The translations under genes and the position numbers were made by a program. A stretch of DNA of 64,000 nt from Antedon mediterranea (taxonomy: Eukaryota; Animalia; Echinodermata): NCBI RefSeq assembly GCF_964355755.1, contig NC_092679.1, forward strand, positions 1,146,201 to 1,210,200, read 5' to 3'. The stretch's first letter is position 1. Every line of letters begins with the position of its first letter. The notes under the pieces are model-generated. The model was not told the origin of the DNA. It worked only from the letters and a program-made list of their open reading frames with translations, and did no database searches. Shown piece after piece: positions 3,665 through 64,000 of this stretch.

Positions 3665-5075
3665 GATTATTAAACAATCTATTATCGGCGATGCAGTTAT
3701 GTTTCTCCTCGTATCGTATTCCGTGTTTTCGTACTAGTGGGTGAGGTCGAATCTATAAAACACGCTTGGCCAGAGATGTGTAAACGCAACACGCATGATT
3801 TAATATTACTGTGGTTAACCATGGCACTAACCATGGGTTAACCAATCACAATCAAGATCTCAGCCAGAGACAATAAACCATTTTTGGCAAAAGTTGGGGA
3901 TTAGCGTTGTTTTTTTTTTAAGCCAAAGGCATGATCAAAGTTAATCAGAATGAGAAAACCAGAAATTATTTATTTGATAAGAATAATATATAACAGATGT
4001 TGTTACGTAAACACGCAGTCAACTTGGTGATGATTATGCCTAGCCGCCTATTTACGTACATTTCTGTTTCTGCTGCCAAGTACCGGTATTTAATATTGTT
4101 TGAATACCGACGTATGTAGGCATTTTTTTTTTTCAAAAAATAACTTTTCGGACTTCCAGTCAAAGTTTTCGATCAAAACATATCTCAATGCAACGCGCCT
4201 GTTTGGCTACTCTGTATGCATAATCATAAAACTTCTCGCGATCTGTTTGAAAACACCTTCTCAACCGTGAAGTTGTAAAAAGTTTGGGGGGCATTTTTTG
4301 TTAATAGCAGGCAACCATGTTGAATGTATCCTTTGTGGGGTGACAAAAACGATAGGGGTGGATGCCATCTTCAGTTTTGGGTTTTAAGGTCAGTTTATGT
4401 GGTCAAGAGGTCAAGCAAGGTCAAAATATAGGATTTTTTTTTATTCACGGAAAATCATCTACATCATCAGATCTATCCAAAAAAGTATATCTGAAGATCA
4501 ACTGAAGCTTCATATTATAGTAATTATGAGAGAAACATTTAATTTTACACATAAAAACATAGGAAATTAAATATAAAAGTGTCATTTTCTCAAAATGTTG
4601 TTTTCACATATTTCTGTAAAGTACACACAGTTTTTTAATAGGCTTTTCCCAGTCTGTTGTAAATTTGTCTTTTTTATGTTGCCCACCAGTCATCGTTTTG
4701 ATTTTTGTCGGAAAAAATAGGTCAAGTGTTATGTATGAAACGCCATATGTACCAAAAGATTGGTCTTTTACTATAGTATTAATATTACTTATAATAATGT
4801 AATACAGTAATATTTAGAAATTTGTTTTTAGAAAAATTATTAATATTACCTATAATAATGTAAAATATTTAGAAATTTGTTTTTAGAAAAATTTCGAAAA
4901 CAGAGACCCCCTATATGACCTAATGTCGAGATGTTTTTGTTTGGGTCAGAGACCCCCTATAATGTAATTATTTAAACATTTTTTCATTATTTCAATGATA
5001 CAAGTTTTTATTGAAGTTTGTTGAGAAACCTGGGTATCGAGTCTTTGTTTTCAAAAACCCTAACTATTGGACTTT

Positions 5076-11714: not shown

Positions 11715-14700
11715 ATGTTTGTATTACACAGAAAAGCGATGGTATTGTACATTCTGTTTGTTTTTAATCAGCCTGTTTCAAGTTTGTTCGACCCGATGAT
11801 AGATCCATTTTCACCTAGTGAGTATTACGCGAGCCCCCCAACCTCTAGGCCTAGGAGGCGCGCCTTAGTAAGATGAGGCTGCTGGGTATGATTTAGCCAT
11901 CGTCGTCAGAGCTAGACTAGAATATGATTTAGTGTAGAAGAGAAATAGTCTAGTAGGCCTAATTAATATGTCATTTTTTTCTCAATGTGAACAAAGACAT
12001 ACAATTATAGTCATCATAGTGTTGTTACTAAACTAAATGCAAGTAAGTAGTCTACTCTATACTCTACTACTAGACGATTGTGTTTCTGATTTCCTTAATA
12101 TTATTAATATATTATTGATTTTTAGTTTCAGGTAATGAATTTTCAGCAGGCACTTGTCCTGGCCTTTATTGCGGACGAGTCTTATACAATGAAACGATGC
12201 CAGACAACTCCAATTGGACTTATACGGAGTGCCGGGTACTGACTATAATTATTCAGCAAAGTTTCTCTAAAGTAATCATCAAAAATTATATTTTAATAAA
12301 TCATAAAATCAACTTTTTTTCCTTCATTGCAGGCTTGTCCAAAAGGTGAACGACCAGATGAGTACTCGATCTGCCAGTCATGCTTGGGTGATCCGGACTT
12401 GTACGCATGGCTGTACCTTGGCTTTATGTTCTTGATTACACTTGTACTTCATTTCTTTTTCATAGATCACTTTTCTAAGGAAGTCAAGTAAGCTATCTCT
12501 GGTCCATAGAAAGTAAAATTATGTAGTATAAATTAACACAAAACTGTACAAATAATTACTACACGCTATATTGTTTGTTTCTAGAGTTGTAATATTACAC
12601 ACATCTTCCTTCGTTGAGTGTGTTGCTGCTGCAATATTTACTTTACTGTCGGTTGAACCTGTAGGTAAGGCAATTTATTAACTTTATTAAAATTAAATAT
12701 TACATTTTTAGTGTTAAGATTATTACCGATTAATGACTTAAATATTTCAACTTCTATCATTAATGTTGTATGTTAATGTAAAGATAACATGACATTCTTT
12801 ATGTTTTTAGGTGATTTGAAAATTCAGTCATGTAAAGTGAACATGGTATCTGATTGGTACACCATGTTTTCCAATCCAACTCCTGACTACAAACACAAAA
12901 TTCATTGTACACAAGAGGCCGTATATCCTTTGTAAGATTCACCTTTGAAATTTGATTAATTTAAAGCCCCATTCCCTACGTTTTTTAGATCTAATTTAAG
13001 ATCACAAACTATATTTAATGTAAAAATAATACTATATGGTCTTATTGCGATAACTTTTTTCGTCTTTAAACGGTTAAAAATGTTAAAAATAAGTCGATTC
13101 TAATAATTATAGCGGCCCGCTATAAATCCCAAAATGCATTGCGCGCGGATTGATATTTTTGTTTTTCACCTGTAATTCGCCCACTTTTCGATCGATCGTG
13201 AGGCCAAAACAAATGGAAGACTCCTAACTTTTCAGCGAAAATACCGGGTTTTCCCCAATTTGTATCAACGGAAATAGAAAGACAATTAATGCAGCAACTA
13301 TACAACGTCAGGCTAGGTATATAGCTAGCGTATGATGTTCGTACGTTACCGATGTTTACCAGCTAGGCCTACAAAACTTAGCCTAGCTAGGCTAGGCCTA
13401 AGACCGTCCACGAGAGGTCGATCGCCGCGAGCTACTTAGGTAGTGCATTGTTTTTCACTTTTTATCATAATTTACCATAAAACGTACATTTAAGACAAGG
13501 AATGACATGGTTTAATGTTTTTAAAGTGATATATATGTATTATTTTCCAAAAAACGTCCAAAATTGCAGGGAAGGGGTCTTTAAGCATTTGAGACCACTT
13601 TCTGTAGTAGTACAGTAGTATATTAAGCTCTTTTTCCACTATCAAACTAGTTTGACAAAAAAAATGTGGGATGTTCCCAAATATGGTAGTGATATGACAT
13701 CAACATGTCCATATATGGGCACATCACATTTTTTGTCGCATAAAGTTTGATAGTGTAGACAGAGCTTTAGGAAATACTCAAAACTCTAGAGGGCATCCTT
13801 CTTGACAGTAATTCAGACTAACCATTAAAATCAATTTACATTTGTAAATGATTTAGCTCTAATTTTATTACACAGACTTTTTGTTTGTTTTTTTAGGTAC
13901 AGTATGGTGTTCATATTCTTTGGCTATCAGTGGGTTTTGATGGTTTTGTTTCGACCTCTGTTATCTGTAAAACTGTGTAAAAACCAAGGTCGAAATTCAA
14001 TATATGCCGCCCTCTATTTTCTGCCGATTCTTGTGGTAATTCATGCAGTGTTTGCTGGAATTATTTGTAAGTTCATGCTAAGTTCGCGCAAGTCAAAATG
14101 GTGAGGCTCACAAACCATACAATTGCTACAGCTGGGTTCAATGCACTTCTCGACCATTGTTCTTGTTGTAGAACATGTCAGGTCAAGTGTACACACTTGG
14201 CTTGCTATGTTTTCTCTTTTAAAAAACCCAGTTGATCTTTCGGAAGAGTATGGGTTACCCTGGTGTAATCATTATATAATATAATATTAACATTGTATTT
14301 ACAATTTTATTGTATTATATTGATTTAAAATTTTCTTTTTTTTCAGATTATTCTTTCCCATTTGTGGTGATTGTCATTTCTCTGATCACAAGTACAATAC
14401 ACTTTCTTAAACAACAAGATTCTGTAAGATATTGGTTATGTTGTTCTTGGTGCATCATTGTCACTATACTTCAATATCATTATCATCATCATTGTTATCA
14501 TTATCATCTCCATCATCATTGTTATCATTATCATCATCATCATTGTTATCATTATCATCCTCATTGTTATCATTATCATCATCATTGTTATCATTACCAT
14601 CATCATCATTGTTATTATTACCATCATCATTGTTATCATTATCATCCTCATTGTTATCATTACCATCATCATCATTGTTATTATTACCATCATCATTGTT

Positions 14701-15165
14701 ATCATTATCATCCTCATTGTTATCATTATCATCATCATTGTTATCATTACCATCATCATCATTGTTATTATTACCATCATCATTGTTATCATTGTTATTA
14801 TATCATCTTTATCATCATTGTTATCATTATCATCTTTATCATTGTTATCATTATCATCTTTATCATTGTTATCATTATCATCTTTATCATTGTTATCATT
14901 ATCATCTTTATCATTGTTATCATTATCATTTTCATAATTGTTATCATTATCATCCTCATTGTTATCATTATCATCTTTATCATTGTTATCATTATCATTT
15001 TCATAATTGTTATCATTATCATCCTCATTGTTATCATTATCATCCTCATCATTGTTATCATCATCATTATTATCATTACCATCATCATCATCATCATGTT
15101 AATGTTGTTGTCTGTATGTTAATGTTGTCTGTATTCCTGGAAATTGAATAAATAAAAAAAAAAAT

Positions 15166-15221
<56 letters not shown>

Positions 15222-15616
15222 GTCATCATCATCATCATTATTATTATCATCATCATTGTTATCATCATCATCATTGTTATCATTATCTTCATCATTATTG
15301 TTATCATTATCTTCATCATTATTGTTATTATTATCTTCATTATTGTTATCATCTTCATCATCAATACTCAATATTAATAGATAAATTATCAATCTCTTTT
15401 TTCTTTAAGCTGTGGCACATATTTCGTGGCAAGAGGAACATCATAATCCTGTTACTACATTGGTTGATTCACGCGTACGGAATCATATCATTCACAGAAC
15501 TCCAGAATCTCAAAGTGCATCTTCCTCTTCTTATCCTCGTCATCGTTCCATCACTTTTTTTTGTACTCACATTCAAACTATCGGAACCCACTAGGATCCT
15601 GTCCTTCCAGCCATGA
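11715..15616 (+). CDS. JKAMP: JNK1/MAPK8-associated membrane protein
   Basis: Exons 11715 (or 11796)-11817, 12132-12235, 12333-12487, 12585-12664, 12811-12931, 13897-14066, 14347-14423 and 15410-15616 join in frame. Motifs: CPGLYCGR, WLYLGFM, SDWYTMFSNPTPDY, HCTQEAVYPLY, SIYAALYF, HWLIHAYGII. Confidence 0.95.
12965..13580. mobile_element. Non-autonomous TTAA-flanked (Kolobok-type) element in a JKAMP intron
   Basis: TTAA|agccccattccct ... agggaaggggtct|TTAA, imperfect TIR. Confidence 0.6.
13626..13766. mobile_element. ~145-bp Harbinger/Tourist-like MITE family A (representative copy)
   Basis: Family TIR agctctgtctacactatcaaact with TTA flanks. Other copies at ~24051-24204, ~27893-28003, ~30609-30748, ~36129-36263, ~40113-40275 and ~48796-48948. 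Confidence 0.85.
14090..14270 (+). mobile_element. Degenerate copy of the tRNA/Deu-domain SINE
   Basis: aaaaacccagttgatctttcggaagagtatgggttaccctggtg resembles the central domain of the SINE at 43597-43958; B-box-like gggttcaatgc upstream. Confidence 0.5.
14452..15362. repeat. (CAT/TAT/TGT)n compound trinucleotide satellite in the last JKAMP intron
   Basis: Units such as cattgttatcattatcat and a pure (CAT)n run; it explains the low-complexity ORFs in all frames. Confidence 0.95.
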
Positions 15617-20619: not shown

Positions 20620-23600
20620 CTAAATGGAGAGTTCTTCGGCATATTTAGATTCCCAGTCTCGATTAAATACGTCACGTAATTGATCCTGAAGACTGTTGGA
20701 ATCATTTGAGGTTGAGTGAGTGTTGTTAACAATTAGTCCTACACCACCAGTCAACGTGAAGTAGCTCCCATCCCAGTTTGAAGTACCTATTAATCATCAC
20801 AACACAAATCAATGCATAATAATCACAGTTAATTAAATTATTACTCAACAGTCACATAATCAAATTTAATTAACAAGATTAATCATTGAAAATGACAATC
20901 AATAATACTTAGTTTAATAATCAACATTTTAAATGATAATATTGAATTTCTGGAAAAAGATGATAAGCTGATGATGAGTTGAATGGGTTAATTGTAATGG
21001 TCAAAGGTAACAACTTAGAAAAATGAAATATCAGGAAAGAACTTAAAATCACTCAAAAAGTTGGGAAACTATCGGGAGACTTGGGAAATTATCAGGAGAC
21101 TTGGGAAACTATCGGGAGACTTGGGAAACTATCGGGAGACTTAGGAAACTATCGGGAGACTTGGGAAACTATCGGGAGACTTGGGAAACTATCGGGAGAC
21201 TTGGGAAACTATCGGGAGACTTAGGAAACTATCAGGAGACTTGGGAAACTATCGGGAGAGTTGGGAAATTATCTGGAGACTTGGGAAACTATCGGGAGAC
21301 TTGGGAAACTATCGGGAGACTTAGGAAACTATCGGGAGACTTGGGAAACTATCGGGAGACTTAGGAAACTATCGGGAGAGTTGGGAAATTATCTGGAGAC
21401 TTGGGAAACTATCGGGAGACTTGGGAAACTATCGGGAGACTTAGGAAACTATCGGGAGACTTGGGAAACTATCGGGAAACTTGGGAAACTATCGGGAGAC
21501 TTAGGAAACTATCGGGAGACTTGGGAAACTATCGGGAGACTTGGGAAACTTGGGAAACTATCGGGAGGTCTTCATTAAACATAGACTGTTAAAACTCACC
21601 AATATAAGCCGCATTGTCTGTCACCATATATTTATTATGGTTGACCCTTGAATATGGAATATACCTTTGATCGTCAGGAACTCTGAACAATTTCTAATGG
21701 CAAAGAATTGAATTCATTAGAACACTAAATGTAAAATCTTGTAGTATTTCTATACCATGCCTAACCTGCTAGGATACTCACAACATCAACTTTGTTTTCA
21801 CCAATTTCATTTATGACTTTAAATGACCGCAGGTAAGGAAGCATTTTGCTGGAAGTATGGTTCCATATGCTGCCTAGAATTTGAACTTCAACCCCACGCT
21901 CTATCGCTGCTTTTCTAAGACGATCATCAATCACTGGCCAAAACCTAAAAAAAACCAAAAAAAACAACAAAATGAAATAAAAAAATTAAATTAAAAAAAA
22001 GTACTTGTAAGAAACATTTTCTCTGTAAAGAATAATTAATAAAATGGCTGGCAAATATAAAATATTGAATTCCTATTTTAATTGTATTCATTGTAATTTA
22101 CACGAGTTTCTGCAAAAAAGAAATATTTTTGTAGAAATTTGGTTGGTCACTTAATTAATTAACACAAAAAGGAACATACAACTGCTCTGCTTCTCCTCTC
22201 CTATATTCTGGGATAATTGGCAAGTAGTCCATGACAGCCACCTTGATAAATGTCTTTGCTCTGTCAATCACATGAAGAATGGCATCAATGTCCGACACCC
22301 TTCCTTTGGGGCAAAACGAAGGAGGGGAACTCTATAAAAAAAAACACGAAAGAACAATTTTGAAAGAGGTTTACTACACAAATTAGTGTTAAAATTGCTC
22401 CATAGTATGAATGAACTACTATATGGTTGTTTTGTTTCTGTTTTTGTTTGCATTGATATGGATATAATAAAACGGGATCTCCTCTCCTATATTCTGGGAT
22501 ATTTGGCAAGTAATCCATGATTAGTTTCATTTAAATAACTTGATATATAATGAAACTAGTGAAAGGTGACTGAAACTTACCGAGAGAACTACCCTTGCAT
22601 TAGTGTTATTAAAAGGGACAGGCATTGTGTTGTTAAAGTTATAGTCCGTATTGAGATCTTGTGGCCAACTTGACGGTACATAGGCATCCTTTTCACCAAG
22701 TTTCCAATACACTTCAAATATTTTAGCCATGTCTTGAGCAAGACAACTGCAATTGTAAACTGCTGCTCCTAGTTCTTTTACCTAAGTATTCATAAGAAAT
22801 AAAAAGTAACAATGAAAGATAATCAAAAGGAAAATTACTGGGAAAAAGAAGACAATGCTGTGTGTATCAGTGGTTGGATCACAATGAAGATAAAAGTTAA
22901 AGATGTATTGTCCCTTTGACTAATCCCCAAAAAATAAAAAATAAAAGATTTCGAAAAAAGGTGGGTCATTTTGAAGTATCATAATAGTTATTAACTATCA
23001 CCAAAAATTTGTCGAAAAAAAAATCATTTAACTAAAATACAGACGTTTTTTTGTTTAAAAAATAACTTTGACTTCCAGTCAAAGTTTTCCATCAAAACAT
23101 ATCCCATAATGAAACGCGCTTGTTTCGCTACTCTGTATGCATATTTCATAAAACTTCTTTACGATCTGTGTGAAAATACCTTCTCAACTGTGACAAGTTG
23201 TAAATAATCCTAATTAGCATATGCATAATGCATACTCGTGGTTTGAAATCTTTGTTTACTTTCACTCGCGACGATTTTCCAGACGAAATGTTATCAAACT
23301 AATTTAGCTGTTATTTACGTACTTGTTGTTTTTGGCTAGAATTTTCGACTTAAAGTGAATAACTTTAATATTACTTTGATATGGCCAATTTAAATTTAGA
23401 ATATTTTGACCTTCATTTTTTTGTGTTTCAAGGGACAATACATCATTAAACAAAAGGCTAAAATAAAATCCAGAATATCCGAATAAGAAATTGCAGAGCT
23501 TCCAGGTAGCACTAACCATTTCTTCAGTTAACAATGAAAATATAAATAATAATAAATACAACTGTTACCTGAGCTACTATACCTTTAATATTTCATTTGT

Positions 23601-24836
23601 TTATTATTTTTATTTAGTCTGGTGGCCATGACTTAAAGTTTGCCTCCAAACTCTATTTTGGCCTTCTGTGTAATTTTAATATTTTAAATTGTAAATGTTA
23701 TGTGTTCGTGTGCAGAGAAACAATAAAAACAAACAATTAACCTCTGCAAGAGAACGAAAATCAATATTTGCACTTCCAACATAGAAATGTGTATCGTCAA
23801 CAAGCAGCATTTTGGTGTGCAAGATGCCTCCGTTCATTAGCCTGGAAAAGTTCAATGACCTAGCTTCCACGGCTTTTGCTTTCACAAGATCTAAGACATC
23901 CCAATCTGGAAATTTAGTAGATGGCATGTTGTATGCAATACGGATGTCAATGTTTCTGGTCGTACCAGCTTTCAACAGCTCCTTATAGATTGTTTCTCCC
24001 TAAGAAAAAAATATATTACTGTTAGAATCTGGCATAAACAATCCTTCTTAAGCTCTGTTTACACTATCAAACTAGTTTGACAAAAAAAGTGTAACCAAAT
24101 ATGGTAGTGATATGCCAAAATATGGTGTAGTGATATGGCATAATCATGTCCATATATGGGACATCACATTTTCTTGTCCCAAGTTTGATAGTGTAGACAG
24201 AGCTATATTGATTACTAATATAATTGTGTTGTTTTCACTTTTAATCTGACAAAAACATAACATAAACAACTGTGACAAAATAATTCTATTGTACATCAAC
24301 TGTAGAGGGAGACTCAGTGACGTTGACATCTTGAGCACGTAACGTCCAATAAAATGAAGCAACATCTATTTTGGTTTTAGCAGACTGTATCAAGTTCATC
24401 CAAGTATTGAAAGTGGATACGTGGGATGGAGCGCCCTCAGCGTATGTCAGATTCTTAGGAATGCTTTCCACAAGCACAACTCTAAACAAAAAAATAATTA
24501 AGATAAACATTATTCCAAGGGAACTATTAAATCTATAATAATGGCATAGTTAAAGGTAGCATATAGTTTTGACTGGATGGACCACCCTCGTAAAATATTG
24601 AATATTGAAATAAGAATGTTTAATTTGCATATATGTAAATTAGTTCACCTGCATTCACTGGTACATACAGTATCTTCTGTCGACGGCTTGTTGTTTAGAA
24701 AAGGAAGCACAAACAGATAACATATACCAAACAGTGAAAACATTAGAATAACTATTTGTACAACAATCAGAAGTGAGAGTTTCTTCTTTGGTATTTTAAG
24801 TTCTTCCTCATACTGTGTTAAGAGAGGCGTGTTCAT
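20620..24836 (-). CDS. PLD3: Phospholipase D3-like lysosomal 5'-3' exonuclease
   Basis: Exons 24836-24649, 24481-24295, 23999-23742, 22781-22581, 22331-22180, 21944-21782, 21693-21600 and 20786-20620. Type II TM N-terminus, [59 protein letters not shown] probable non-coding exon has its donor at 25557. Confidence 0.96.
21061..21567. repeat. 20-bp minisatellite, about 25 copies, in the last PLD3 intron
   Basis: Unit ttgggaaactatcgggagac. Confidence 0.97.
22901..23445. mobile_element. Non-autonomous Kolobok-type element in a PLD3 intron
   Basis: TTAA|agatgtattgtccct ... agggacaatacatca|TTAA. The same sequence occurs split at ~4130-4279 and ~9616-9800. Confidence 0.8.
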
Positions 24837-25755: not shown

Positions 25756-30875
<5,120 letters not shown>

Positions 30876-34500: not shown

Positions 34501-34632
34501 ATTGTTTAGTTTAGGCCTACGGTTAACTGGTTATCATCATGTGATTTTCTAAAATGCTGGTTATAAGGCGTATCCGCTGAAATAGATAGCTCCTCTCCCT
34601 CCCTACCTAATCATCCCACAATCTGGAATATA

Positions 34633-37600
34633 ATGGCTAGAACATTTAGAAAACAAGAAAAATCCGAAAAGAAGGTGAAACTCTGCTTGTTAGTGTTTCT
34701 CCTCTTCGTGGCCTACCTTCTGATTGGTTCAGTTATTTTTGGTGCAATAGAAAAAGGAAATGAAGAAGAAGCCACAAACAAACTTTTAAATGATGTAAAC
34801 TCGTTTATTGATGAACACGAATGCATTGAAGAAAGAGACATACAAAGGTTGCTAAACACGATTAGAATGGCTGTGAATGAAGGAGCATATTCTGTCCATT
34901 TTAACTCAACCAAAGGCGAGTTGGATCTTATCTGGGATGCTATCTCCGGTGTATTCTTTTGTTTTACTATAGTCACAACAATTGGTATGTACAAAGCATT
35001 TTTTTATCACTCCTTTTCTGTCACAAAAAAACATTTTCTCGCAACTTAATTATGTTTATTGCCACCTATAAAGCATGTGGCTGTATTCATCATTCACACG
35101 CTAAGGGAAACACTTGCCCTTAAAATAAAAATAAAAGTCTCCTATCTAAGTGAATACAATTTAAGGGAAATATTTATTGAGTTAGCCTAATTGAAATACT
35201 TAATATCTAAGTGAAATATCTGACTTTAAGTGTGGTTGGTGAATACGGCCACTTATTTCAACTCTTGAACAACGCAGCGATGTACGTAGGCGCAACGCAA
35301 GTGAATTAACCAATTACCAACGACAATTCATGACGTGGTCAAATTGCTCGCGATGCGCTTACGGTACGTTCAGATGTTGCGTCCAAATTGGCATCAAGCT
35401 TAATAGTGGGCAGATTGAAAATTATAGGAACAAGGAAGAACCATTCTTAAAATATTCCGGAAAACAAGTTTTTCCATCACTTTTTTCCTAGTAAAAGTAT
35501 TAGATTTTAGTATCGTCCGTGTCACCCACGAACACAATGTTCGTAAATAAAATAACAGTATATTTGTATATGTGTTTCACGTTCCCAAATTTAATGACAC
35601 AAGTTTTTTTTTGCTATCAGTTCTAATAATTCTGAATCTCTGTATACCAAACTTATTTCATTCTAAGATTCGGTCGCAATTTGATCACTTTCCATTTTTG
35701 TCAGAGTGGAAAAATATGTGTGTAGTTAGTCTGTCAGTACATTGGTAGTTGTAATGATACAGATTTAAAGCGCAGGAATAGGCCAACTTTTACAGTTTAA
35801 TTACCACAAACAGTCCTTACTTATTTTACCCCCTAAAGTAACGAGGACTTCATATTTTAGCGGTGTAAAAAAAAATGTTTAGATCTAATTATTTAATGTA
35901 CCGATGATGCTTCCATTCAGCTACAAACAATTATCAAGATGATGCTAGTTTCATCAGTGAAATTGTACAAGTAGGCGTTGTATCGGTACAAACCATAATT
36001 ACTGTACGTGATTCACATGGTTTGGTTCGCACTAGGACGCAACGCAAGCACGTAAGCGCAACGAAAATAATAAGTTGACCAAATCGTAAATTCAGATGAC
36101 GTTCGGTGTACATCATATAAATGTATACTATCTATACTATCAAACTAGTTTGACAAAAAAAGTGTGATGTGCCTAAATATGGTAGTGGTATGACATCATA
36201 ATGTCCATATATGGGCACATCACGTTTTTTTGTCACATAAAGTTTGATAGTGTAGACAGAGCTTTAAAAACTATCTTTAAACAAGCATTCAGAGATGGAT
36301 AACCTATCTTTAACACTCGTTCAAACGGCACTTTATCTTATCCATGGTAACTCACGTACTGTCAATACTTAACATTGTAGTGTACTCTTGTTTCTATGGC
36401 AATTGTACATCTAATGTTGAGGACAGGTTGAGGAGTGTAATGTCCCTTCGCGCGCCAGAGAAATGTTAACATTTTCAATGAGTCATATCATTTTTAAAGA
36501 TTGTTTAATCTTCATTTTGTAAATTTCTTTATTTGCTTTGTTGACCAAAAGCTGGGCAGGTACTAGGCGGGGTTCCGACGAACACTTAACAAGAATTACA
36601 CGTGTGATTATTCTACTAAAACCAATGCTGCTTTTAAAACATAAACGATTTATTGGAGGAGCTTGATTATGCATTTACACTTAAATAGGCCTACTATAAA
36701 TAATCTGATCATTAAAGGAATTCATTGATTGTTGCAGACTGATGCTAGCGACGTAACCACGTTAATTAACACCATGCATTAATTGCATTTTTGCATCAGT
36801 CGATAAACACATCATATTAATTTACATTTTACTTAAGTTTTTACAATGTGATTTTAATCTTAAGAATTGTCGTCATTTTTTAAGCTACTAAACATAATAA
36901 TTAATATACGTAAAAAAAATATTTTACTTTGGTGTTTATTTACTCTATATAGCCTGGGTTACTTGTTTTACATGAGGCATTTAATTAAAATCCACATATT
37001 AATGACATTGGGAGAACAGAGTACAGAGATTTTCTCCAAAAAATGGCCAAACGATTTAATAGCAGAATAGGCGCGCGCGTAAAAACAATGATAACCATAT
37101 TTTATAATAAGCATCTTCAATCCTGGTGCATATTCGAGTCAGTTGGCATCATTGGGTAACTATTAATGGCATACTGTATCATACTGTATCATACTGTATC
37201 TTACTAGAACAACTAAAGAATAGCATGTATTAAAATTGATAAAACGTTAGTGTTTTGAGTTGGTTAGTCATAAAGTCGATGTTGTGCGTTATAGATCAAT
37301 AAATGGCATGATCGCATTGTGCCATTTGTTTACTTACGCTGTTCATTTGATATGTTAAGTCCGATGCTTAGCTTGTTTATTGCAAACTTATCTGTCTTTT
37401 ACAATATTACCGAATACGTTTTAATCGATGTATGGTATCCGTCATATTTACGCTAAAGCAAACAATAATTAATTAACACTTGTAATGTAATAATATATGT
37501 TACACACAATTGTTTTAACAATGCTATTTTCTCAGCGCGCGCGCGTGTATCGTGATGCTGAAAAACTCATTTGTAGCATCCATTCATCATCATTTATCAA

Positions 37601-43600: not shown

Positions 43601-45716
43601 TATTTATTTATTTTATTTTTATTTTATGTCTTTAGGCAATGTGGCCAAGGATTACCAATAGTGAATTAATCACTGTCCTATCAGATAGGTGGTAATCCTC
43701 CTGATACAGGGGCTATTGTGTGAACCAGTTCACCGGGGTAACCCCCTACTCTTTTTCGAATAATGAACTGGGTTCTTTAAAGTACACACAGGTTATAACT
43801 GTGTACACTGGACCTACGGTTTATAGTCCTTATCCGAGAAGACTTGTTCCACCACCAGAACTAGGAGCGAGTCGGCCTCGAACCCTTGCCGATGTTGTTG
43901 TTGGCTCTTTAGATACGGTAAACGGCGCCCCTGCCTTAACCGCTCGGCCATATGACTCGTGGTTGGAAAATGTTAAAGTATTTAATCATCCCTGGGAAGC
44001 GGATGGGAGGTTGGGGTGGGGATGTAGGCCTATCACCATGACCGAAACTGTATTTGAAAACTGCCACTGAGGGATTATGGGTTGGGAGTGATAATAACAT
44101 AATTTGTACTGGGGTGTAGTGTAGTAGGGGGAGGAGGAGCGAAAATACTAGCGTAATGAAGTAGCCTATATGATTGGATTGTACTAAGGAAAGTTACTAA
44201 ATTTGAACTGTCCAGGGGAGGAGTCAAGGTTTGTTGGTGGCTGGGGTGGTGAAAGGAGAAAGAAGGCTGGGGGGCCGCAGTATCTAAATTACATATTTTA
44301 ATTATCAGCCAATATGACACCTATTCATTTACACAATTTACAACGTACCATTCAACCATTATTAGACCCATCGTAGCTATGCATACTCCTCTCAATTCGA
44401 AGCTTAGGTTGAATTGAATTTGTCCATCACTGGGAAGAATTTGTTTTTAAGAAAGAGTATGGGGTGTTATTGAAGAGGGGTGTTATTGAAGAGGGGTGGA
44501 GGTTGGCGAGTACAGACAGATACTCATGGCGTCGGGTGTTATGTACTGAGAAGGCTGTAAACTAATTTTGAAACCCGCCCTGGGGCGGGTATAATTGCTA
44601 GTTGTTTATATCTCAATGTATTCATATTTCTATCTTTAAATACACATATTATTTTGATTCCTTGTAGGTTTTGGACACATAACACCAAAGACAACTGGAG
44701 GTCAGGTATTCTGTATCGCATATGCTTCCTTTGGCATCCCAATTACTGGCTATCTTTTGTCCCTTCTTGGCGACAATTTCGAACGCTTCTGGACATGGTA
44801 CCAACGATTATTGAACAAAAAATTGCAATGTATTCGGTCGGTGCGTTTACGTAGGATTACGATAATAGCATTTGGTATATCTATTGTTTTGATTTTGACA
44901 TTGTTTCTACCTTCGTACTACTGGTCTCTGGAGGAGGAATGGTCCTACTGGATCAGCATATATTACACTTTTATCACCATGACAACCATTGGGTTTGGTG
45001 ATTTTGTTGCGAGTATTGATGACAGTACAATACCTTTAGTAAATCGTATTTTTGATTTAATTGTAACTATTTTTACAATTCTATTAACACTGGGTTTGGT
45101 CACCGGTATTCTCAAAATTGCAGCAAAACGAATTGAAAAAAGCAAAAATTTTGCAAACTCTAGACTTAGCACAATGATGAAGAAGTTGCTTGGCAACGAA
45201 GGAATGGACGATTTGAATAATACAAGATCTATTAAAACAATATCGAATGATCTTGCTAAATGTACGCCAAACGGTAACCATAACAACCAACTGACAGTTT
45301 ATACCGGACCGTCTTCTTCTAATTCTACAGATGATCAAAATAATATACGCGTAGAAGATGATACTGTAAAAAGACGCGTAAGTGACACGTCACAAGCCAC
45401 GGACTTAAGTTGTGCCGATGTTAGTTTGGAGTTTTCCAATCGAATCGAGCTGTATTTAAACAAGACCTTGATAATATCAAAATATGGATTAACGGATGAA
45501 ATGATTGAAGACATTAAAGACGTTATCAATAATCACATTGTTGAAGCTATCGACACTGAAGCAAATATACGCAATAAACCACCGTCTAAAGGACCGGTGG
45601 CCGTTAATGGAATGGTTAATGGCGGCTTTCTTGGTGATGACACAAAGACAAGACAAGTGTGCGTTAATACACAAGATAAGCGCGTATTTGTTGATATGCA
45701 TAGCGATATTGTTTAA
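34633..45716 (+). CDS. Two-pore-domain K+ channel (KCNK, TREK/TALK-like), gene 1
   Basis: Exons 34633-34984 and 44668-45716, with a phase-1 intron of ~9.7 kb inside P1. YLLIGSVIFGAIE, cap Cys, P1 TTIG|FGHITPKT, FGIP, P2 TTIGFGDFV, long C-terminal tail. Confidence 0.93.
40964..41144. mobile_element. Fold-back (palindromic) MITE-like element
   Basis: tttatcgcaatatagc..tgcgcaatgcatgatgggaa..gagcaaacgtcac is mirrored by gtgacttttgctc..ttcccatcatgcattgtgca..gctatttgcgataaa. Confidence 0.7.
42328..44601 (+). mobile_element. Non-autonomous Helitron in the KCNK gene 1 intron
   Basis: A|TCTATATTATAA start followed by a (GTYT)n microsatellite, internal duplications, subterminal hairpin acccgccc-tg-gggcgggt, and CTAG|T end. 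Confidence 0.85.
43597..43958 (-). mobile_element. tRNA-derived SINE with a Deu/Nin-like central domain, nested in the Helitron
   Basis: Minus strand has A-box TGGCCGAGCGG, B-box GGTTCGAGGCC, core tctcggataaggactataaaccgtaggtcc...ttaaagaaccc...tcgaaaaagagtagggggttaccccggtg and a (TAAA)n tail. TSD gtggtt at 43591-43596 and 43959-43964. Confidence 0.85.
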
Positions 45717-54400: not shown

Positions 54401-54712
54401 AGCAATTCTGTGCTATAAAGATGTTATTGTATGTTCTTTATTCATGTATCGTATAAGTACGTTGTTGTTCTTTATTCGCGTGTCTTTATGGTGTTGTTGT
54501 TCATGTGTCTTAAGTACGTGCTGTTGTTCTTGATGCGTGTGTCTTAAGTACGTGTTCTAAACTTAGCGTATTTATTTTCAGATGGAGATACATGTTGGAA
54601 GCTTGTGAAACCAAAAACATCTTCTTGAAATAGAAACTAAAAAATACAGTTAATCAGTAGAAACTTAAAATACCAGTACTACATAACTGAGTACAGACAA
54701 CAGACACACAAG

Positions 54713-56131
54713 ATGGAACTTACTGAATTGAATTCATGGAGAAAAGCTTTGCTTAGCTTCGTCGTCTTAATAGCGTATCTGTTCATTGGTGGTGCCATCT
54801 TCCACTCTCTTGAACGCAGTGACGAGGAAGACAACAAGGGCTACATCGTCGACACCGTCTACGATTTTCTAAGTAACAACAGCTGTGTTGATAGTTACGA
54901 GCTTGGTGAATTGATAAAGACAGTTGTGGAGTGGGGTGATAGTAACTTGATTAACGAAGGCAACGTAAGCAACGTGGACGACATGCCTGATTATTGGGAT
55001 TTTGTGAGTGCCGTCTTCTTTGCCGCCACTGTCGTCACCACAATTGGTAAGAAAGATTCTAGACTGTGTAACTATTTGGCACAAATTATGAAGTTTTCTA
55101 ACAAAACTCGAAACGCCAACTGGTGCACTAAAAGACAATAACTACAGACTTGGAGCAGGTCTAGGTTTCTTACGTTGGACACAATGCAACGACAATTAAG
55201 ACTTAACGCAATGCAAGTGAGTTGACCAATTATAACGGAAGTTCGGCGGATCCCTATCATCGCCGGCGGGTTGGTCGAACTACTTGCGGTGCGCAAAAAG
55301 ACATAGACGCAACACAAGTAAGTTGATAAATGACAGGTGACAGTTCGAATAATCCATCGCTTGTGATTGGTCAAATTACTTACGTTACGTTACGTCATTG
55401 TGTTGCGTCTTATGACGATGACTAATGTACCGTTGATGTTTTATAGTATGTTCATTCCAATATTTATCTTTTTTTCAGGCTATGGACATATTGCTCCGTC
55501 AACATACAGCGGTGGCGCGTTCTGCGTCTGTTACGCGTTCTTTGGTATCCCTCTAACAGCATTATTTCTGGCAAACGTTGGTGATTGCTTTTCCGACAGC
55601 TGGAACGCTTGGAACGCGTTACTAGTTAAATACGTAACGTGTTTCTCTAAACATGAACGATTGAAAAAAGTCATATCAACGGTTGTACTTATTATACTAG
55701 CGTATTTTTTAATTATTCTGATTCCTGCCGTTATCTTCAGTAAAATAGAAGAATGGACTCATCTGTCCAGTCAATATTACTGTTTCATATCCCTTTCGAC
55801 GATTGGTTTTGGAGACTACGTGATAGGACAAAACACAGCTAAATCTTATAGTTTTTTGAAGCTGTATAAGCTATTGACAGTGCTATACATCCTGTTTGGC
55901 TTGAGCGTTTTAACTTTAAGCTTTAAACAATTGCAAGTGATCTACCAAGTTAAAGTACCACGTGTTCGTGGTCGAGTGAAACGAAAGACAATAATGGTAA
56001 ACCGGCATGATATTGAAATGACAATGAAACGGACCTCTCACGTGAATGATGACGTTGAAATAGAATTAGACCTAAGTGAAACGTCTTACACGATTGCGTG
56101 TGACGCATCCGTTCAAACTGACAATTTTTAG
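54713..56131 (+). CDS. Two-pore-domain K+ channel (KCNK, TREK/TALK-like), gene 2
   Basis: Exons 54713-55046 and 55479-56131. YLFIGGAIFHSLE, NSCV cap, WDFVSAVFFAATVVTTIG|YGHIAPST, FGIPL, STIGFGDYV. Confidence 0.95.
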
Positions 56132-56581
56132 TGATTTTTTCGTTTGGCGTTTTTTATAACATGTATTAATATTTTAAACCCGGTTGTAGATATAACATAT
56201 CCCTATCCTTTTGTAAATAAAAGGTAAGATTTAACGATTCTATTGATGCGTTATAAAAATATTATATGTAGTTTTTTTAAAAATAAATAAATAAAGTATA
56301 AATAAACAAACAAAACCCTGTTCTTATACAATTAAATAACTTTGTATTTATTGACACACATTTCTTCTACGAATGCAGTACCAATTTATAAATATACGGT
56401 ACATCTTAACTACATAGAAATTGCATAACACCGTAGACTGTTCAATAAATCCATGGAGAAATAATGTTACAGTTACTTATGGATATTCCAATATATATAC
56501 TGTATTAAAATCATCGACACCTTAAATATCGCCCTCTCGAGTCTCACTGGAACGGCAAACACCACTTGATGGTGTCATATC

Positions 56582-59500
56582 TAGGCTATGGGGCATGGCC
56601 TTCTATCGTTTCATTTCGTGATCCCCTATCGGGGGGGAGAATAAAATTGCTATGACAATTATAACAAAAATATAGATAACCTTAAACTGGCCGGTCCCGC
56701 TTGTAAATGTTACGCCTCAACGAAATATGTTTGTTTTTATATGTATTTTATTGCGATATAGAACATTTTTGTAGGTCAGTACAGGTCGCACAATTGACCA
56801 ATCAAAAAATTTGTCTTTTAACTCATGGAGCTGTGCAACAGTAACTGTCCAATCAGATTCCCTTACACAGCGGGATACGGCTACTAGACGATCGTAAACA
56901 AACATGTGTTGTTCTTCTGGAGCGCGGAGCAGGAAGATGTCATCTTCTGATGATCAAAAACGTTGTTATTGACACAATACATCTAATTCTGGGACAATAT
57001 TAACATTCACAGAAACCAAATGGAAAACTTTTTTAATGTGTACAAAAAGTTGGTGCAATCTAAGCGGCAATCAAAAGGAGTTTTGTAGCCGCAAATCCTT
57101 TTGAAAATATTGAGAGGAGCTTACCAATAATACTTGTTACCAATTCCTGGCGACGCTGGATGTCATAAAAAGATGCTATCAATATTTCACTGATTGTAGC
57201 AAACAAAGGCGAGCAGTAAAATATGAAATAGAGGATGTTAATTCATCCAACAATGAAGAAGGTAAATTCTATTTGTTTTAATGATAGGTCTAGCCTAGGC
57301 TAGCTAGGCCCAGTAATTAGTTCATATCATACTGCCTTGCTAAAAAAAGCCTAGCTAGGTAGGTTGGCGGTGGGTAGTCTACAAAGTTTATTTTTTTAAT
57401 ATGTATTAAGCCTACGTAGAGTAGGCTAGGCCTAGTATATAATTTTTTTTAAATATCTGGGCAAAAAAAAAATGAACCCATAATTACAATATGAATTAGG
57501 CCTAGCTAGGGTGGCCCCAGTATTATTGTGTAGTGGACCTAGTTTGATGGTACCTCCATCTTGGGAAAAAACATTTGCATTTTATTATTCAATGTGGTAA
57601 TGCATGCAAACCTTGGCAAGTAGCCTCAGGCAAGGACAGAATGGACCAACCTGATGCTTTATGTTGTTATTTGAGACATATTATTTGAATTCTTGTACTG
57701 CAATATTAAATAGTGTATAGATGATACTGAACTGATTATATTATTATATTTATTACACAAACATTTAGAATCATAAATATTAATTAGTATTCTTTTTTTT
57801 TACAGAAGAATTTCAAGGATTAGAGTCAACAGAAGAGTTACTAAACGAAGGAGAGTTCTGCGATCACATGTAGCAATTACACAAACTGCATAAAAAATGC
57901 TGAACGAAGTCGAAGAGTAGCCATCGGCTCACAAACAATTAAAATACCAAAAGCCGAACAGCAAATTCCAGAACAGTTGAAAACATTTTTATCTGCTAAT
58001 CAAGTTCTTCTTTCAAATATGAAGCATGTGTGAAGCAGATCACCTCAAGGGAATAAATGTATTCATAACATCATCATTATTATGCAATTCTATTTCAGAA
58101 TCAAATGGAAAAGTTTTAATCAAGAAGAGGCAGACACCAGAATGTTTCTGTATGCGAAGTATGCTGCACACCATGGTGGTAAAGATATTGTTACAATCAG
58201 CCCTGACACTGATGATGTTTTTATTATTGGATTGGCATTTTGCAAAAGTCTGCATGGCTGTCACCTATATTTCAATACTGGAAAAGATGCTAATCTCCGA
58301 ACAATTCATCTGCAGGCTATTCAGGAACATATTGGAAATGATGTTTCAAATGCATTAATTAGACTACATTGCTTCACAGGATGCGATTCAGTCAGCGCTT
58401 TTTTAGGAACGGTAAAGTGAAGGCAATGAAACTCGTAATGGAAAACTCTAATTTATGCATTCTTTTCATTGGGCAATTCTACCAGCAAACTTTCAGATAA
58501 ATTACTTTGTGATCTAGAAACATTTGTATGTAGGCTGTACAGTATTGTCACAAGAACCAATCTGTCAATGAAGTAAGGTATGCAATGTTCTCAATGAATG
58601 TAAGAGCTGAAAATATGATGCCACACAATAAAGATACTGTATATAAACATATTCAGCATGCCAATTCTCAAGCTTCAATTCACAAAGCTAGTTTTATTCA
58701 ACAACAAAATGCTCCATCTCCTGTTGGAAATGGGTGGAAGATGGCCGATAATAAACTCGTAATTGACTGGATGGAGAAGCAACCTGCTCTACACAGCATT
58801 CTCGAATTGTCATCCTGGTCATGTAAAAAGTCAAAATGCAATGAAGGGGTTGCAAATGAAAAATGCTGTGTATCCTTAGGATTCTCTTGTACAGAATTAT
58901 GCTCGTGCAAAAACTGTAACAATCTTCTTCATACATCAGATGTTTGAAATTGATGGAGATGATAGCGATGATGAGGAAGAGTTTGAGCAGGAAGAACTTT
59001 TTAGTGTAGTTTAAGTGTAATTTATGGTTTACAAATGTTCATTTTACTTGGTCTACATGATTTTAATGTAATAGGCCTATAATATGTAAATTTATATTAA
59101 ACTATTTTGTAACTTAACTATTTTGTAACGTAAAGGATGAACCACGAGAAAGTATAAATAAAGAACCCATGAGGTGATAAGCAATATTAAGACACAGGAG
59201 TATTATAAGAAAATTTCTACTTTGATGCTTACAATACATTAATATGCCTATAAAATGTAAATTTATATTAAACTATTTTGTAACTTAACTATTTTGTAAC
59301 GTAACGGATGAACCATGAGATGATAAGCGATATTAAGACACAGGAGTATTATAAGAAACTTTCTACTTTGATGCTTACAATACATTAATATGCCTATAAA
59401 ATGTAAATTTATATTAAACTATTTTGTAACTTAACTATTTTGTAACGTAACGGATGAACCATGAGAAAGTATAAAATAAAGAACCCATGAGATGATAAGC

Positions 59501-60213
59501 AATATTAAGAAACAGGAGTATTATAAGAAACTTTGCTGTAATAATTTCATTTATTTGTTACTAATTGATTATAATTCTATGTTATACATCTACAATGAAA
59601 ACAATAATGCAACATTTGATTTATTACTAATTGATTATAATTCTATGTTATGCATCCAATGAAAACAAAAAGTTGCAATTATATAGGAGAGATAATATTA
59701 ATAAATATTTTGTGACAGCATAGTCATGAATTATAAGATTGAAAATGCATCTTCTTTTCAGTGTGCTTAAATAAATATTAATTAAGGTTTACTAACAGAT
59801 ACATTTCTTACAAGGACTACAATATTAATCTCAAAATTATGATAAAAATATTGCATGTTAAATGTGAAAGAAAGATACAGTATAAGTTATTCCAATGGAA
59901 CGATTGTATTTTATCCAGTACTAACACTAACAGAAAATAATAGAAAAAATAGAAAAAAAAATAAAAAAAAAAAAAAAAAAATAAAATAAAAAAAAAATAG
60001 AGGGCGCTATTTCTATGTATTTCTTTATGTTGAGAAATTCGATTTTTTTACACCTAAAATTACACTTATTGCGTAACTTTTGAAAGCGGGACCGGCTGAA
60101 TTTGTGTTAATCTAATTATTAACTATAAACTGTGTGAATATCTTCCTCCCCCCCGTTAGGAGATCACGAAATTCGTTTTCTAGGCCTCTTTTTGGCTCAT
60201 GCCCCACAGACAA
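56582..60213 (+). mobile_element. Decayed Academ(X)-like DNA transposon (XPG-like nuclease plus Cys-rich tail)
   Basis: ~135-bp imperfect TIRs (56582-56715 versus 60071-60213) share ggggcatg, atttcgtgatc, gggggga, gccggtccc and gttacgc. The frameshifted ORF has EEADTR, DTDDV, LHCFTGCDSVSAF, PSPVGNGW and CTELCSCKNCNN. No TSD found. Confidence 0.75.
59078..59535. repeat. Three imperfect tandem copies (~150-170 bp) inside the transposon 3' region
   Basis: tgtaaatttatattaaactattttgtaacttaactattttgtaacgtaa... at ~59085, ~59255 and ~59402. Confidence 0.88.
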
Positions 60214-60218
60214 TAATT

Positions 60219-63200
60219 ATGGCAGGACAGCACGAACTAGGCAGTGGTATGTAATTTTGAATATTAGCCTATTATAGTAGCTTAAGAATGTAGTATTGAG
60301 TAGGTGCTAATTGACAACTATTGACAATTGCGCTTATGAAAATTGTTTTCGCCATAATTTTCGTCTGATTAATTAAAAGTAGGCATATTTATAATTACGG
60401 TATAGTTAGTTAACGGTAGGTTTAAATTAGTAGGCCTATCCTAGTATTCAATTACAGTTTATTAAATATAAAATATTATAAAATTGTTTCCGCCACACAG
60501 TTCACATAATACATGCAGGAGAGGACATAACATTATTGCATAAGTTAAGAGATGCTCTAGATCTAGAGAATGAAGAAGCCAACCTAGATACCAGCTGCCA
60601 TTTCAGGAGGTTCTATAGCAAAGGTAATTTTAAATAGTTTAACGATTGTGATGTCATGGGAAAAACATTTAAAATGTATTTTATTGATTGATGATTGATT
60701 GATGAGGTGGTACTGTCAACTCTCCCAAAAGTGGCCCGTCTGAAAAAGGTCCCGAATTCATTGTTAGCATACGGGGCTTTTAAAAAAACCCAGACATACT
60801 AGGCCAGCCCAAAGGTGTCCAGTATTGGATAATTGACTGTATCACAGATACTAGCACAGTGATTGATAAAGAAAGTACCAAATTACAAAGGTTACCTGTA
60901 TTCAATCATAGTTAATTATTATTAAACAGATACCAACATAGCGCAAATAATATTGAAGGATTTGGAAGATTTTGTTGCTAGCTGCAATGAAAACAAACAG
61001 AATAAATGCATGTTGATTGTCAGTGACCGTCTCAATGATGAATTGAATAAATCACCCGAATACATCGACAAAATTAAAAAATGTAAGTTTTAGAAGTTAG
61101 AAAATTGCTTAAGTTGTTTTATTCTAAATTGTATGTAAACTCCTAGCATCGAGTCAAAAGACCTTAGCCTGAATATGTTGAGTATTGTGGTTGAGGGATT
61201 CTTTATAATTCAAATTTCTACATTCGCGCCTGAATGAAATGTCAAGTTATCAATTTTTCAATCAACAACAACATTTATTTAGAAAACAGTTCATGAAATA
61301 AAAACAGCATACATTAATTACAATAACTTAAAATGGTAACATTAAATAAGAACTGTTTCAGGGATCAGAAAAAGAAGTAAAAAAACTTGTCAAATACCAA
61401 CCCCTAAACAAAAACAACAGAAGAGCAACTGCAGGACAAATCATTAGAAAATAATATTGTCTGATCTTTTTTTACATAAAATTGTACTCAACTTTCATTC
61501 TGTCATTTTTCTTACAGTAATATTGAATGACGTCACAAATGGGTCAAATTTCGTTCTAATTACTATAAATACAAACAACACCATTTTTTCTGAAAACAGT
61601 TTTGAGCAAATCAAAGTGGCACATGAAGATGAAGAAGATTATGAGGCAGTTGCAAAGAATTCCATTGCCATATGGTGTAGTAAGTGGAATAATATTGTGG
61701 AACGAAATGTTCGATAAATACACAGCATTTAAATAAATAAAAAATAATGTTATTCACACACTCTTTTAAATTCTGTGGCAATAAAATATATGAAATGAAA
61801 TAATACCGTATGACAGTAAAATTTGAATTGTGTTTCAAGAAAACCCCGTCTCTATGACCCTTTGTAAGGGGTCACAGTAACAATGAAAGCTGCTCATTTT
61901 GTATTATAAATTCAAGAAGACTTTATACAATAAAAAGCCAATTAACACCTACAGTATTCAATTTGAATTCTGCACCCTGCTAGATTTGTATTAAACCATT
62001 TGACACATATTTTGTTGATAATTATTACATAATTCTTTTTATTTATTTTCTTTTTTATTATTGTATTTATATGTATCACATGGAAAGTTTGTCTGAAATT
62101 GAATTGAATGTGAAGCATTTATCAAAATTGTATATTTTTTTTTTTATTCTCAGGAAATCAATCGGACCTATCAAAAACTTCTAAAACAGGTTAGTAGCCT
62201 AAGTCATTAAAAATTAGTATTTAGAAATAACGTATTCTATAGAATATAAAATGATAAGATATAAATGGAAAGAAAGAAAATGATATTTGATTTGTCCTAT
62301 GTCCATTTAATACATTGCGAAAGAATGGAAGTTGTTTCATTGTCTGGTAGGCCTAGTACATTAGAATAATTGTAGTATTTTATTGTTACAGTCCTCAAGG
62401 CTGCTGCTGTTGGGGCAGTTGGAGGAGTAGCTGTGGCTACTGCTGGCCCAGTGCTACTAGGTTTTGGAGCAGCTGGTATTGCAGCCGGTAGCCCAGCAGC
62501 AGCAATGATGTCCGCTTCAGCCATAGCAAGTGGTGGTGGTGTAGCAGCTGGTGGTCTGGTGGCTACATTACAGTCGATCGGAGCTGTCGGCTTAAGTGCT
62601 CTAGGTACTTTGTTTGCTGGCATTGCCGGCGCCACTGTGGCTGGTGGTACTGCTGCTGCAGTGGCTGTAGCTACTCGAACCACAGGGGCCAATGTGACTG
62701 TGACTGCTGGTTCTGTGACTGCTGGTTCTGTGACTGCTGAAAGTAAGAAGAAAATTTAAAAAATTAAATTAAATTAAAAATTTAACGCAAAAGTTAATAT
62801 TTTTTTATAATTGAAGACATAAAATAAAGAATACTATATTAAACTAACTGCATAATCATGCTTGGCCTACTGTAATAAGGGGACTCTTTTAGTAGCCTAA
62901 AATAGATTAAATTAAGTACAGTATTATTGAGTTAAAAATGTATAATATTTAGTAATATATTATAATTGCGCTTTATAAATATTGTTTGCGCCACACAGTT
63001 CACATAATACATGCAGGAGAGGATAGAACATTATTGCATAAATTAAGAGATGCGCTAGAGAATGAAGCCAACCCAGATACCAGCTGCCATTTCAGGAGAT
63101 TCTATAGAAAAGGTAATTTTACATAGTTTAATGATTGTGATGTCATGGAAAAAACATTTTCAAATTAATGTTTAGAATTTAAAACACCTTTTCGATCGAA

Positions 63201-64000
63201 TACCTGGCTAAAACAATAAACAGACATGTTAGGCCAGTCCAAAGGTGATAGTTGACTATGACTATCACAAACAAACAAATAACAGCGATTAGAGAGATAG
63301 AGAGTACTAAAGTCTAATTAGTGACCTTTCACTTCTTTCAAATTTTGCTATTTAAAAAAATTAATTTTACAACCGGAGTATTCGCCCTATTGTGAGATTC
63401 TGCCTCATGTTGGTGACATTTAAACTTAAAATCTCACAAAAATATTATTAACACTCAAAGTTAATTATTACTAAACAGATACCAACATAGCGCAAACAAT
63501 ATTGAAGGATTTGGAAGATTTTGTTGCTAGCTGCAATGAAAACAAACAGAATAAATGCATGGTGATTGTCAGTGATCGTTTCAATAATGAAATGAATGAA
63601 TCACCCGAACATATCGACAACATTAAAAAATGTAAGTTTTAGAAAGAAGTTGGGTAGCGATATTATAGTCAGGCCTTGTCTTTTTGTCAAATTGCAGGTG
63701 AGTTGCAAATTAAAATCTTGAACATTCACATTTAAGTGTGCCATAAATGCCACACCTCAGGGGCATTTTGCATGAGTGTTAAGAAGGCATCTGATCGCAC
63801 TCCTATGCCTTAAAAGACAAGGCCCGTATATTGTGTGTATTGATGTTCCTAAATGACAAACTATACAGTATTAAAAATAATATTGTCTGTTCGTTCTGTT
63901 TTACGTAATACTCAATATTTTAACATTTCATTCTGTAATATTTCTTATAGTATTGAATGATGTCAATAATACAAACGGGTCATTTGTTCTACTCGTTATG
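60219..64000 (+). CDS. Modular gene: TIR-like domain, ISG12/IFI27 domain, second TIR-like domain (runs off the right edge)
   Basis: Exons 60219-60246, 60501-60623, 60930-61082, 61518-61679, 62154-62189, 62392-62742 (or through the stop at 62759), 62999-63112, 63479-63631 and 63951->64000. All introns are phase 1 GT-AG and there are no stops. The ISG12 motif [43 protein letters not shown] is clear; the TIR-like call is from pattern only. Confidence 0.75.

Follow-up and report, generated by a model that had tools for sequence, protein, structure and literature searches.

Introduction

ISG12 genes have been described from invertebrates (PMC9144789), and proteins of the family follow a two-pass membrane pattern (PMC13705193); one of them, IFI27, damps RIG-I (PMC10175689). 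TIR domains function as scaffolds or as enzymes, the scaffolds working through self-association (PMC8635717), and divergent TIR domains often lose their box motifs (PMC7075850). Invertebrate deuterostomes commonly combine TIR domains in new ways (PMC2575513), and in the oyster a TIR-only protein, CgMyD88s, damps NF-kB (PMC7381170). Here we describe a gene of the crinoid Antedon mediterranea in which an ISG12 exon lies between two copies of a domain, called D in the following, that is probably TIR-like. The gene starts at position 60219 of a 64,000-nucleotide (nt) stretch of contig NC_092679.1 (the window), which is AT-rich, intron-containing animal DNA. Fusions of ISG12 as such are not new; the combination of a TIR-like domain with ISG12 is. 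A first, sequence-only reading of the window knew of no such fusion, and none was found in listings of the literature available without subscription or among nine proteins recovered in an ISG12 homolog search.

A gene with one domain repeated around an ISG12 exon

Nine exons on the forward strand (E1–E9), with GT..AG ends and phase-1 junctions throughout, join into an open frame of 390 amino acids (aa). This frame is identical to residues 1–390 of XP_071962576.1, a 426-aa A. mediterranea protein labeled uncharacterized at NCBI, which ends 36 residues beyond the window. The domain order in the protein is D1 (residues 10–155), a linker, ISG12 (172–251) and D2 (285–426), in total two D copies and a single intact ISG12. 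A second NCBI isoform of 349 aa corresponds to residues 78–426 of the longer form, lies in the same cluster and matches the E6 query at 100% identity; both isoforms contain E6.

The start exon E1 (60219–60246) supplies nine codons (MAGQHELGS) and is given by the window sequence and the NCBI model. D1 is encoded by E2 (60501–60623; predicted betaA-alphaA-betaB, with a box-1-like VHIIH), E3 (60930–61082; predicted alphaB-betaC-alphaC/C′) and E4 (61518–61679; predicted betaD onward, poorly modeled). The terminal Trp of E4 is conserved in all four D copies compared in this study. A 12-codon linker exon in common with ISG12 paralogs, E5 (62154–62189), is followed by E6 (62392–62742), an in-frame cassette of 351 nt that carries the ISG12/Ifi-6-16 motif and whose end is lengthened by 2.8 units of a 15-nt tandem repeat (62698–62739). 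The region 62743–62828 holds a GTAAGA donor that lies within a likely ancestral last exon, a stop reached by read-through (62757–62759) and an AATAAA at 62823. D2 comprises E7 (62999–63112), which is 9 nt shorter than E2, E8 (63479–63631) and E9, which begins at 63951 and extends beyond the window by 36 codons, up to the end of the protein. Copy 1 and copy 2 exons show 89–93% DNA identity, and the window contains no separate start exon for D2.

The sequence-only reading had proposed phase-1 exons leading to D1, a linker and a full ISG12 motif, then a GTAAGA donor splicing in phase to a second copy without a start exon, all in one multi-module gene. The exon ends, the frame shared with the NCBI protein, the PF06140 match and the RNA joints given below agree with it on each of these points. 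It had also allowed for further modules past the window; the protein ends there after its second D copy, and its one intact ISG12 is internal and skippable.

Transcripts and alternative splicing

The gene is a real, expressed and alternatively spliced chimera. Five sequencing runs contain the stretch, none of them named as RNA in the record, and four were compared. We judged run X1 to be spliced RNA because it contains GT..AG joints, none of which occurs in the unspliced comparison runs X2–X4. Joints at 61082>61518, 61679>62154, 63112>63479 and 63631>63951 are present, and a joint of the E2>E3 type is placed on the second copy. In all, five of the eight introns are spliced out by listed joints (one of them copy-ambiguous) and a sixth, between ISG12 and D2, by depth arithmetic. 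The idea of two separate genes was rejected, since contigs connect both E5 and E6 to E7.

One 269-nt contig of X1, which over E4 shows 0 differences, leads through E3, E4 and E5 and then directly into E7, a form that skips ISG12 and that the sequence-only reading had missed. Its joint is given as 62185>62995; with the letters ACAG common to both sides it becomes 62189>62999, with GT..AG ends, although the overlap is reported as 3 letters rather than the 4 shared ones. The skipping form would encode a 309-aa D-linker-D protein; neither of the two members of the NCBI cluster corresponds to it.

The joint of the inclusion form, 62742>62999, is missing from the X1 joint table. A 248-nt contig (2 differences, depth 13.3) matches 62525–62742 plus 30 letters, one under the 31-letter bridging rule, which were placed by depth tables. 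At 62999–63028 a depth of 43.55 is predicted with these 30 letters and 36.9 without them, and 43.5 is seen; at 63024 the sum 54+28.8+13.3=96.1 accounts for them as well. Because the E6 contig ends at 62742 and its further letters fit the depth at 62999–63028, we infer that the GTAAGA donor at 62743 is used.

Several observations weigh against a full fused transcript. Of the two junctions singled out in the sequence-only reading, 62742>62999 holds by depth only, and 62189>62392 occurs only in a 1433-nt contig that shows 21 differences and belongs to a paralog. X1 contains neither the E5>E6 joint of the gene itself nor the first half of its E6 (62392–62524), since the depth over 62440–62499 is explained exactly by two paralogs, and the contig of depth 13.3 may be joined to a paralog-type 5′ half. 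The splicing evidence comes from a single RNA run of unknown treatment. The missing half of E6 could reflect contig cleaning, filtering or a different allele. The full fused transcript is thus partly supported: by the letters of the window, by NCBI's model and, in one run, by one of the two tested junctions. The E6 read-through form has no cover in X1 and the E1>E2 joint was not seen there, absences that prove nothing.

The ISG12 module and its relatives

E6 matches PF06140 over model positions 2–82 of 84 (68.4 bits against a cut-off of 29.1, E=5e-19) and the IFI27L1 structure 2loq (E=1.7e-10), the sole relative from PDB sequence searches. Residues 172–262 form a Gly/Ala-rich segment with zero charged residues, and hydropathy peaks at approximately 167–199 and 217–260 are compatible with two or three membrane passes. 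Unlike a small stand-alone ISG12 with an N-terminal targeting peptide, the 426-aa protein starts with D1. At least two further expressed ISG12 types occur in X1 (62388–62622), one of them stand-alone, with exons resembling E1 and E5, the other with a 9-nt insertion; Antedon therefore has an ISG12 family.

The ISG12 homolog search scored 7994 candidates of 213–2000 aa, with a low-complexity bias by which other animal fusions may be missed, and gave nine proteins: the Antedon protein and eight others, five of which carry the motif behind beta-trefoil repeats. These repeats are of ricin-B/fascin/FGF type and their carriers include a diatom and a green alga, a recurring lectin-like plus ISG12 design. 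Among 600 pattern matches in prokaryote genomes there were 0 ISG12 relatives.

Domain D and its probable relation to TIR

Domain D, about 145 aa long, matches two proteins among 1.84 billion representatives, the Antedon protein and a 759-aa protein of Anneissia japonica; proteins below 234 aa and above 1329 aa were covered only by the 50%-representative search. Two word-seeded homolog searches with D gave nothing beyond these two crinoid genes, and across the D and ISG12 homolog searches the fused architecture was found in one species only. The uncharacterized Anneissia gene LOC117123096 (XP_033124816.1 / XP_033124813.1) encodes two D domains followed by an extended low-complexity linker and, at the C-terminus, a weak Death match. 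Its second D is 44–49% identical to Antedon D; the first is divergent (21–27%) and was linked by alignment and motifs, not by BLAST. The order of domains is reversed relative to MyD88, and Glu is kept at the putative catalytic column. This protein is likely a tandem TIR-like adaptor. In Antedon itself, D exon 3 occurs in a third version, a copy or an allele (60967–61054), which appears in the unspliced runs only, with 9 listed substitutions, 4 residue changes and no stop.

That D is TIR-like is probable. Family profiles were built from the best loci in prokaryote genomes (TIR_2 32 sequences, SEFIR 5, VWA 26, receiver 25, flavodoxin 24), without a small number of loci that were weak, broken or not listed; TIR_3 had no members in 15 genomes. 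With the four D copies, HHalign scored TIR_2 at 26.1, VWA at 19.0, SEFIR at 15.2, flavodoxin at 11.0 and receiver at 10.3, and the alignment to TIR_2 stays in register over 65 columns, between box 1 and betaC (betaA-alphaA-betaB-alphaB-betaC). TIR_2 ranked first in all four leave-one-outs. The score of 26.1 was attained by 0 of 100 column shuffles, 0 of 100 shuffles of 8-column blocks, 1 of 283 with 15-column blocks and 3 of 183 with 25-column blocks, and the reversed profile gave 12.8; the positive control, TIR_2 with SEFIR, gave 122. The Atlas features of Anneissia residues 1–325 have a TIR cluster as top match (0.90), with 10 of the 10 best family matches in the same family or clan. The Atlas model of D1 resembles flavodoxin-like folds, with TIR clusters at template modeling (TM) scores of 0.55–0.60 in 3 of 10 rows. 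AlphaFold gave D1 four strands with helices between and an unresolved last third, at a low confidence (predicted local distance difference test, pLDDT, 45–52: 45 for the whole protein, 52 for D1 modeled from four alignment rows, one of which failed to align).

Other results count against a TIR assignment. None of the curated TIR hidden Markov models (HMMs; TIR, TIR_2, TIR_3, SEFIR) is among the 13 families that match the 426-aa protein at E<=10. The HHalign probability of the D/TIR_2 alignment is only 27%, and the control TIR_2 with flavodoxin, an unrelated pair, scores 25.5, near the 26.1 of D. The Atlas model of D1 is closer to VWA (TM 0.74, 0.68 and 0.67), the Atlas features give no match for D1 itself, and a value of 0.9 was reached by 4–10 in 100 shuffled proteins. 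The Death match at the C-terminus of the Anneissia protein is below its cut-off (14.7 versus 22.6 bits, E=0.034). The TIR HMMs do not match the Anneissia protein at E<=1, and PDB sequence searches returned no TIR match. The low-confidence AlphaFold models were too poor for fold searches to be informative, with no TIR among the rows shown. The TIR fold that the sequence-only reading had proposed is accordingly unproven, and what stands of it is that TIR-like is the best of the readings tested.

Other candidates were set aside. Weak Pfam matches to PAS_10, CZB, Alfin and 7TMR-HDED arise from summing the two repeats and were rejected, although PAS_10 reached 23.1 against a cut-off of 22.1. P-loop ATPase and deaminase fold matches were treated as common-arrangement noise from poor models, and NCBIfam and PADLOC searches gave weak, unrelated matches only.

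The column that holds Glu in 32 of 32 TIR_2 sequences has Lys in D1 and Asn in D2, in a low-confidence global alignment, and Glu in both Anneissia domains; the Trp of W-x-x-x-E is missing from Antedon D. D is likely non-catalytic, in line with the earlier remark that a NADase motif is absent. A specific likeness to BCAP/BANK1 had also been suggested. This is not upheld: the 426-aa protein has no TIR_3, DBB or ankyrin match in Pfam, and only a kinked third helix, seen in the low-confidence D model, is common to it and BCAP.

Origin of the chimera

In X1 the contig of the stand-alone paralog has 30 letters before the linker exon (before 62153) that read, by eye, PGQQELASSS, homologous to the MAGQHELGS of E1. 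Because this paralog has homologous first and linker exons, E1, E5 and E6 represent the skeleton of an ordinary ISG12 gene. E6 retains its own stop and AATAAA downstream of GTAAGA. Introns 1 and 6 end in mutual copies of ~25 nt (60476–60500 and the E7 acceptor region, 62968–62998, a likely duplication edge), and introns 2/7 and 3/8 have shared patches. Past position 64000, the unspliced runs show an E4-like end, an intron without E5 and a further ISG12-like exon, which has gained 3 nt and lost 1 nt. This second exon has probably decayed; 16 indel rows lie outside the listing, by which the frameshift is not certain.

From these arrangements, the simplest history would be that a three-exon, phase 1-1 cassette encoding D entered intron 1 of an ISG12 gene (E1-E5-E6), that the unit E2–E6 was then tandemly duplicated, that the former last exon supplied an internal GTAAGA as a donor, and that the second ISG12 copy decayed. 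The gene looks young, a chimera in one species. Synonymous divergence between the D copies is 0.14–0.20. The ratio of nonsynonymous to synonymous divergence is 0.39 over 103 codons (Fisher p=0.02), with the frame kept across 9-nt and 3-nt indels. Against this, E2 and E3 alone, the best-aligned 89 codons, give 0.48 (p=0.22), which is not significant.

Other features of the window

Directly upstream lie Ion_trans_2 exons (34567–35049, 44658–45716 and 54641–56131, forward strand), apparently from a tandem set of two or three genes for two-pore potassium channels. Between these and E1 is a broken reading frame in several pieces (57845–58947, forward), with EEADTR, DTD and FTGCD motifs, a Cys-rich tail and no Pfam match, features typical of a nuclease-like family borne by invertebrate transposons. 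The window also contains a papain-family protease exon (28097–28381, forward), a phospholipase D exon (23676–23999, reverse) and a reverse-transcriptase element fragment (4999–6385, forward). Tandem repeats of 146-nt and 66-nt units lie upstream of E1 (59100–59671), and larger low-complexity or 20-nt satellite arrays occupy 14343–15500 and 20941–21660. Within the first module, depth spikes mark short high-copy repeats in introns 2 and 3 (60790–60828 and approximately 61220–61400); the introns of the second module have no comparable spikes.

Proposed function

We tentatively propose that D1-ISG12-D2 is a decoy that damps TIR signaling, with D divergent and non-catalytic and with predicted membrane-tethered and soluble forms. 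Because the first exon of the ISG12 gene was kept, its promoter and ISG12-type induction were probably inherited as well. Were ISG12 a two-pass hairpin, both D copies would face the cytosol at the endoplasmic reticulum (ER) or mitochondria, where they would bind D or TIR partners; lacking a Death domain or the catalytic Glu, the bound copies would not relay the signal, and inclusion of E6 would set the site of action. A damping role would fit the precedents of IFI27 and CgMyD88s. No interferon-stimulated response element (ISRE)-type match was found in 54637–62261, including near E1, which counts, as weak evidence, against such induction.

The sequence-only reading had favored an activating adaptor or death effector. 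A decoy is likelier, because ISG12 is skippable between two D copies, no Death or other output domain was found in the 426-aa protein by Pfam search, and the gene looks like a young one-species chimera. An activating scaffold, in which ISG12 oligomerizes on mitochondria or the ER and clustered D nucleates a D-D-Death adaptor, as TIRAP and TRAM do toward MyD88 and TRIF, appears improbable. It would share the same anatomy, and bridging TIR adaptors also have no Death domain. TIR scaffolds do operate through self-association (PMC8635717), and the shrimp IFI6-16 is virus-induced and promotes expression of apoptosis genes (PMC9144789). However, a word-seeded protein search and tblastn of the window revealed no D-D-Death partner in Antedon, and neither a signal peptide nor a receptor-like input was found, the sampled N-terminal hydropathy being below 0.7 and the protein beginning with D1. 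The predicted D1-D2 complex scored 0.03, which is evidence for neither side.

A rather unlikely alternative to the decoy is that the soluble D-D protein is the working product of a young, rearranged gene and that the ISG12 exon is a passenger, included by leaky splicing or contributed by a neighboring allele or paralog. The unbranched contig with this gene's E4 goes from E5 to E7, X1 shows no E5>E6 joint of the gene itself, the D-linker-D product resembles the Anneissia pair, the ISG12 copy past 64000 has no E5 and a 1-nt loss, and the homolog searches found the fusion in no other species. A passenger exon is less easily squared with an E6 that is intact over 351 nt with a complete motif, that is present in both NCBI isoforms and that has a contig leading to E7. 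Short branches can be lost in the contig cleaning of such assemblies, and the missing joint may have been dropped in this way. It is distinctly improbable that D is another doubly wound alpha/beta domain, VWA-like or orphan, with a role outside TIR signaling: the VWA profile scored below TIR_2 and 4 of 60 shuffles equaled its score, D has about 145 aa where VWA has 174 positions, the AlphaFold models that might speak for it are of pLDDT 45–52, and the Death-like partner and the Atlas features favor TIR. A wider claim, that D is an unrecognized crinoid TIR family of a D-D-Death adaptor, captured in an ISG12 gene to give a TIR regulator whose anchor is switched by a cassette exon, we consider doubtful.

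If D is TIR, standard HMMs miss a whole crinoid TIR family and echinoderm immune-gene counts are too low. The locus would then also show how, step by step, exon shuffling turned an ISG12 gene into a membrane anchor. On the wider claim, TIR and ISG branches of innate immunity would be directly and physically joined in an animal that has no interferon. The skipping and inclusion pair provides a natural experiment on whether the ISG12 motif, whose action is poorly understood, serves as an anchor, an oligomerizer or a pore.

Comparison with known systems

The FAM14/ISG12 proteins (IFI27, IFI6, IFI27L1 and shrimp LvIFI6-16) resemble the Antedon gene in the PF06140 motif, the 2loq match, the uncharged Gly/Ala segment and, in the Antedon paralog, the first and linker exons. 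They are about 130 aa long and have a signal peptide (PMC13705193, PMC9144789), whereas the Antedon protein has 426 aa, with the motif flanked by two globular domains and encoded by an internal exon that can be skipped. Anneissia LOC117123096 is the only other carrier of D and has the tandem D pair, but it adds a linker and weak Death domain, has no ISG12 and keeps Glu where Antedon has Lys or Asn.

Among TIR adaptors, oyster CgMyD88s also has a TIR-type domain without a Death domain and a proposed damping role (PMC7381170). BCAP is a negative TIR adaptor whose kinked third helix recalls the low-confidence D model (PMC5241739). Both differ in that no sequence similarity was shown and that the Antedon protein is without DBB or ankyrin regions and has tandem copies and an ISG12 anchor. 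The Antedon protein shows no Death-TIR join of the MyD88 kind; a weak Death domain is present only in the Anneissia homolog. Amphioxus and sea urchin have lineage-specific TIR proteins in which shuffling likewise brought novel partner domains to invertebrate deuterostomes; Ifi-6-16 is not named in the 2008 partner table and has 0 matches in supplement 4 of that study (PMC2575513). The five algal and diatom beta-trefoil-ISG12 fusions offer a parallel for ISG12 as a module behind a folded domain, although there the partner is of lectin/fascin type, the motif is near the C-terminus in most and the lineages are unrelated.

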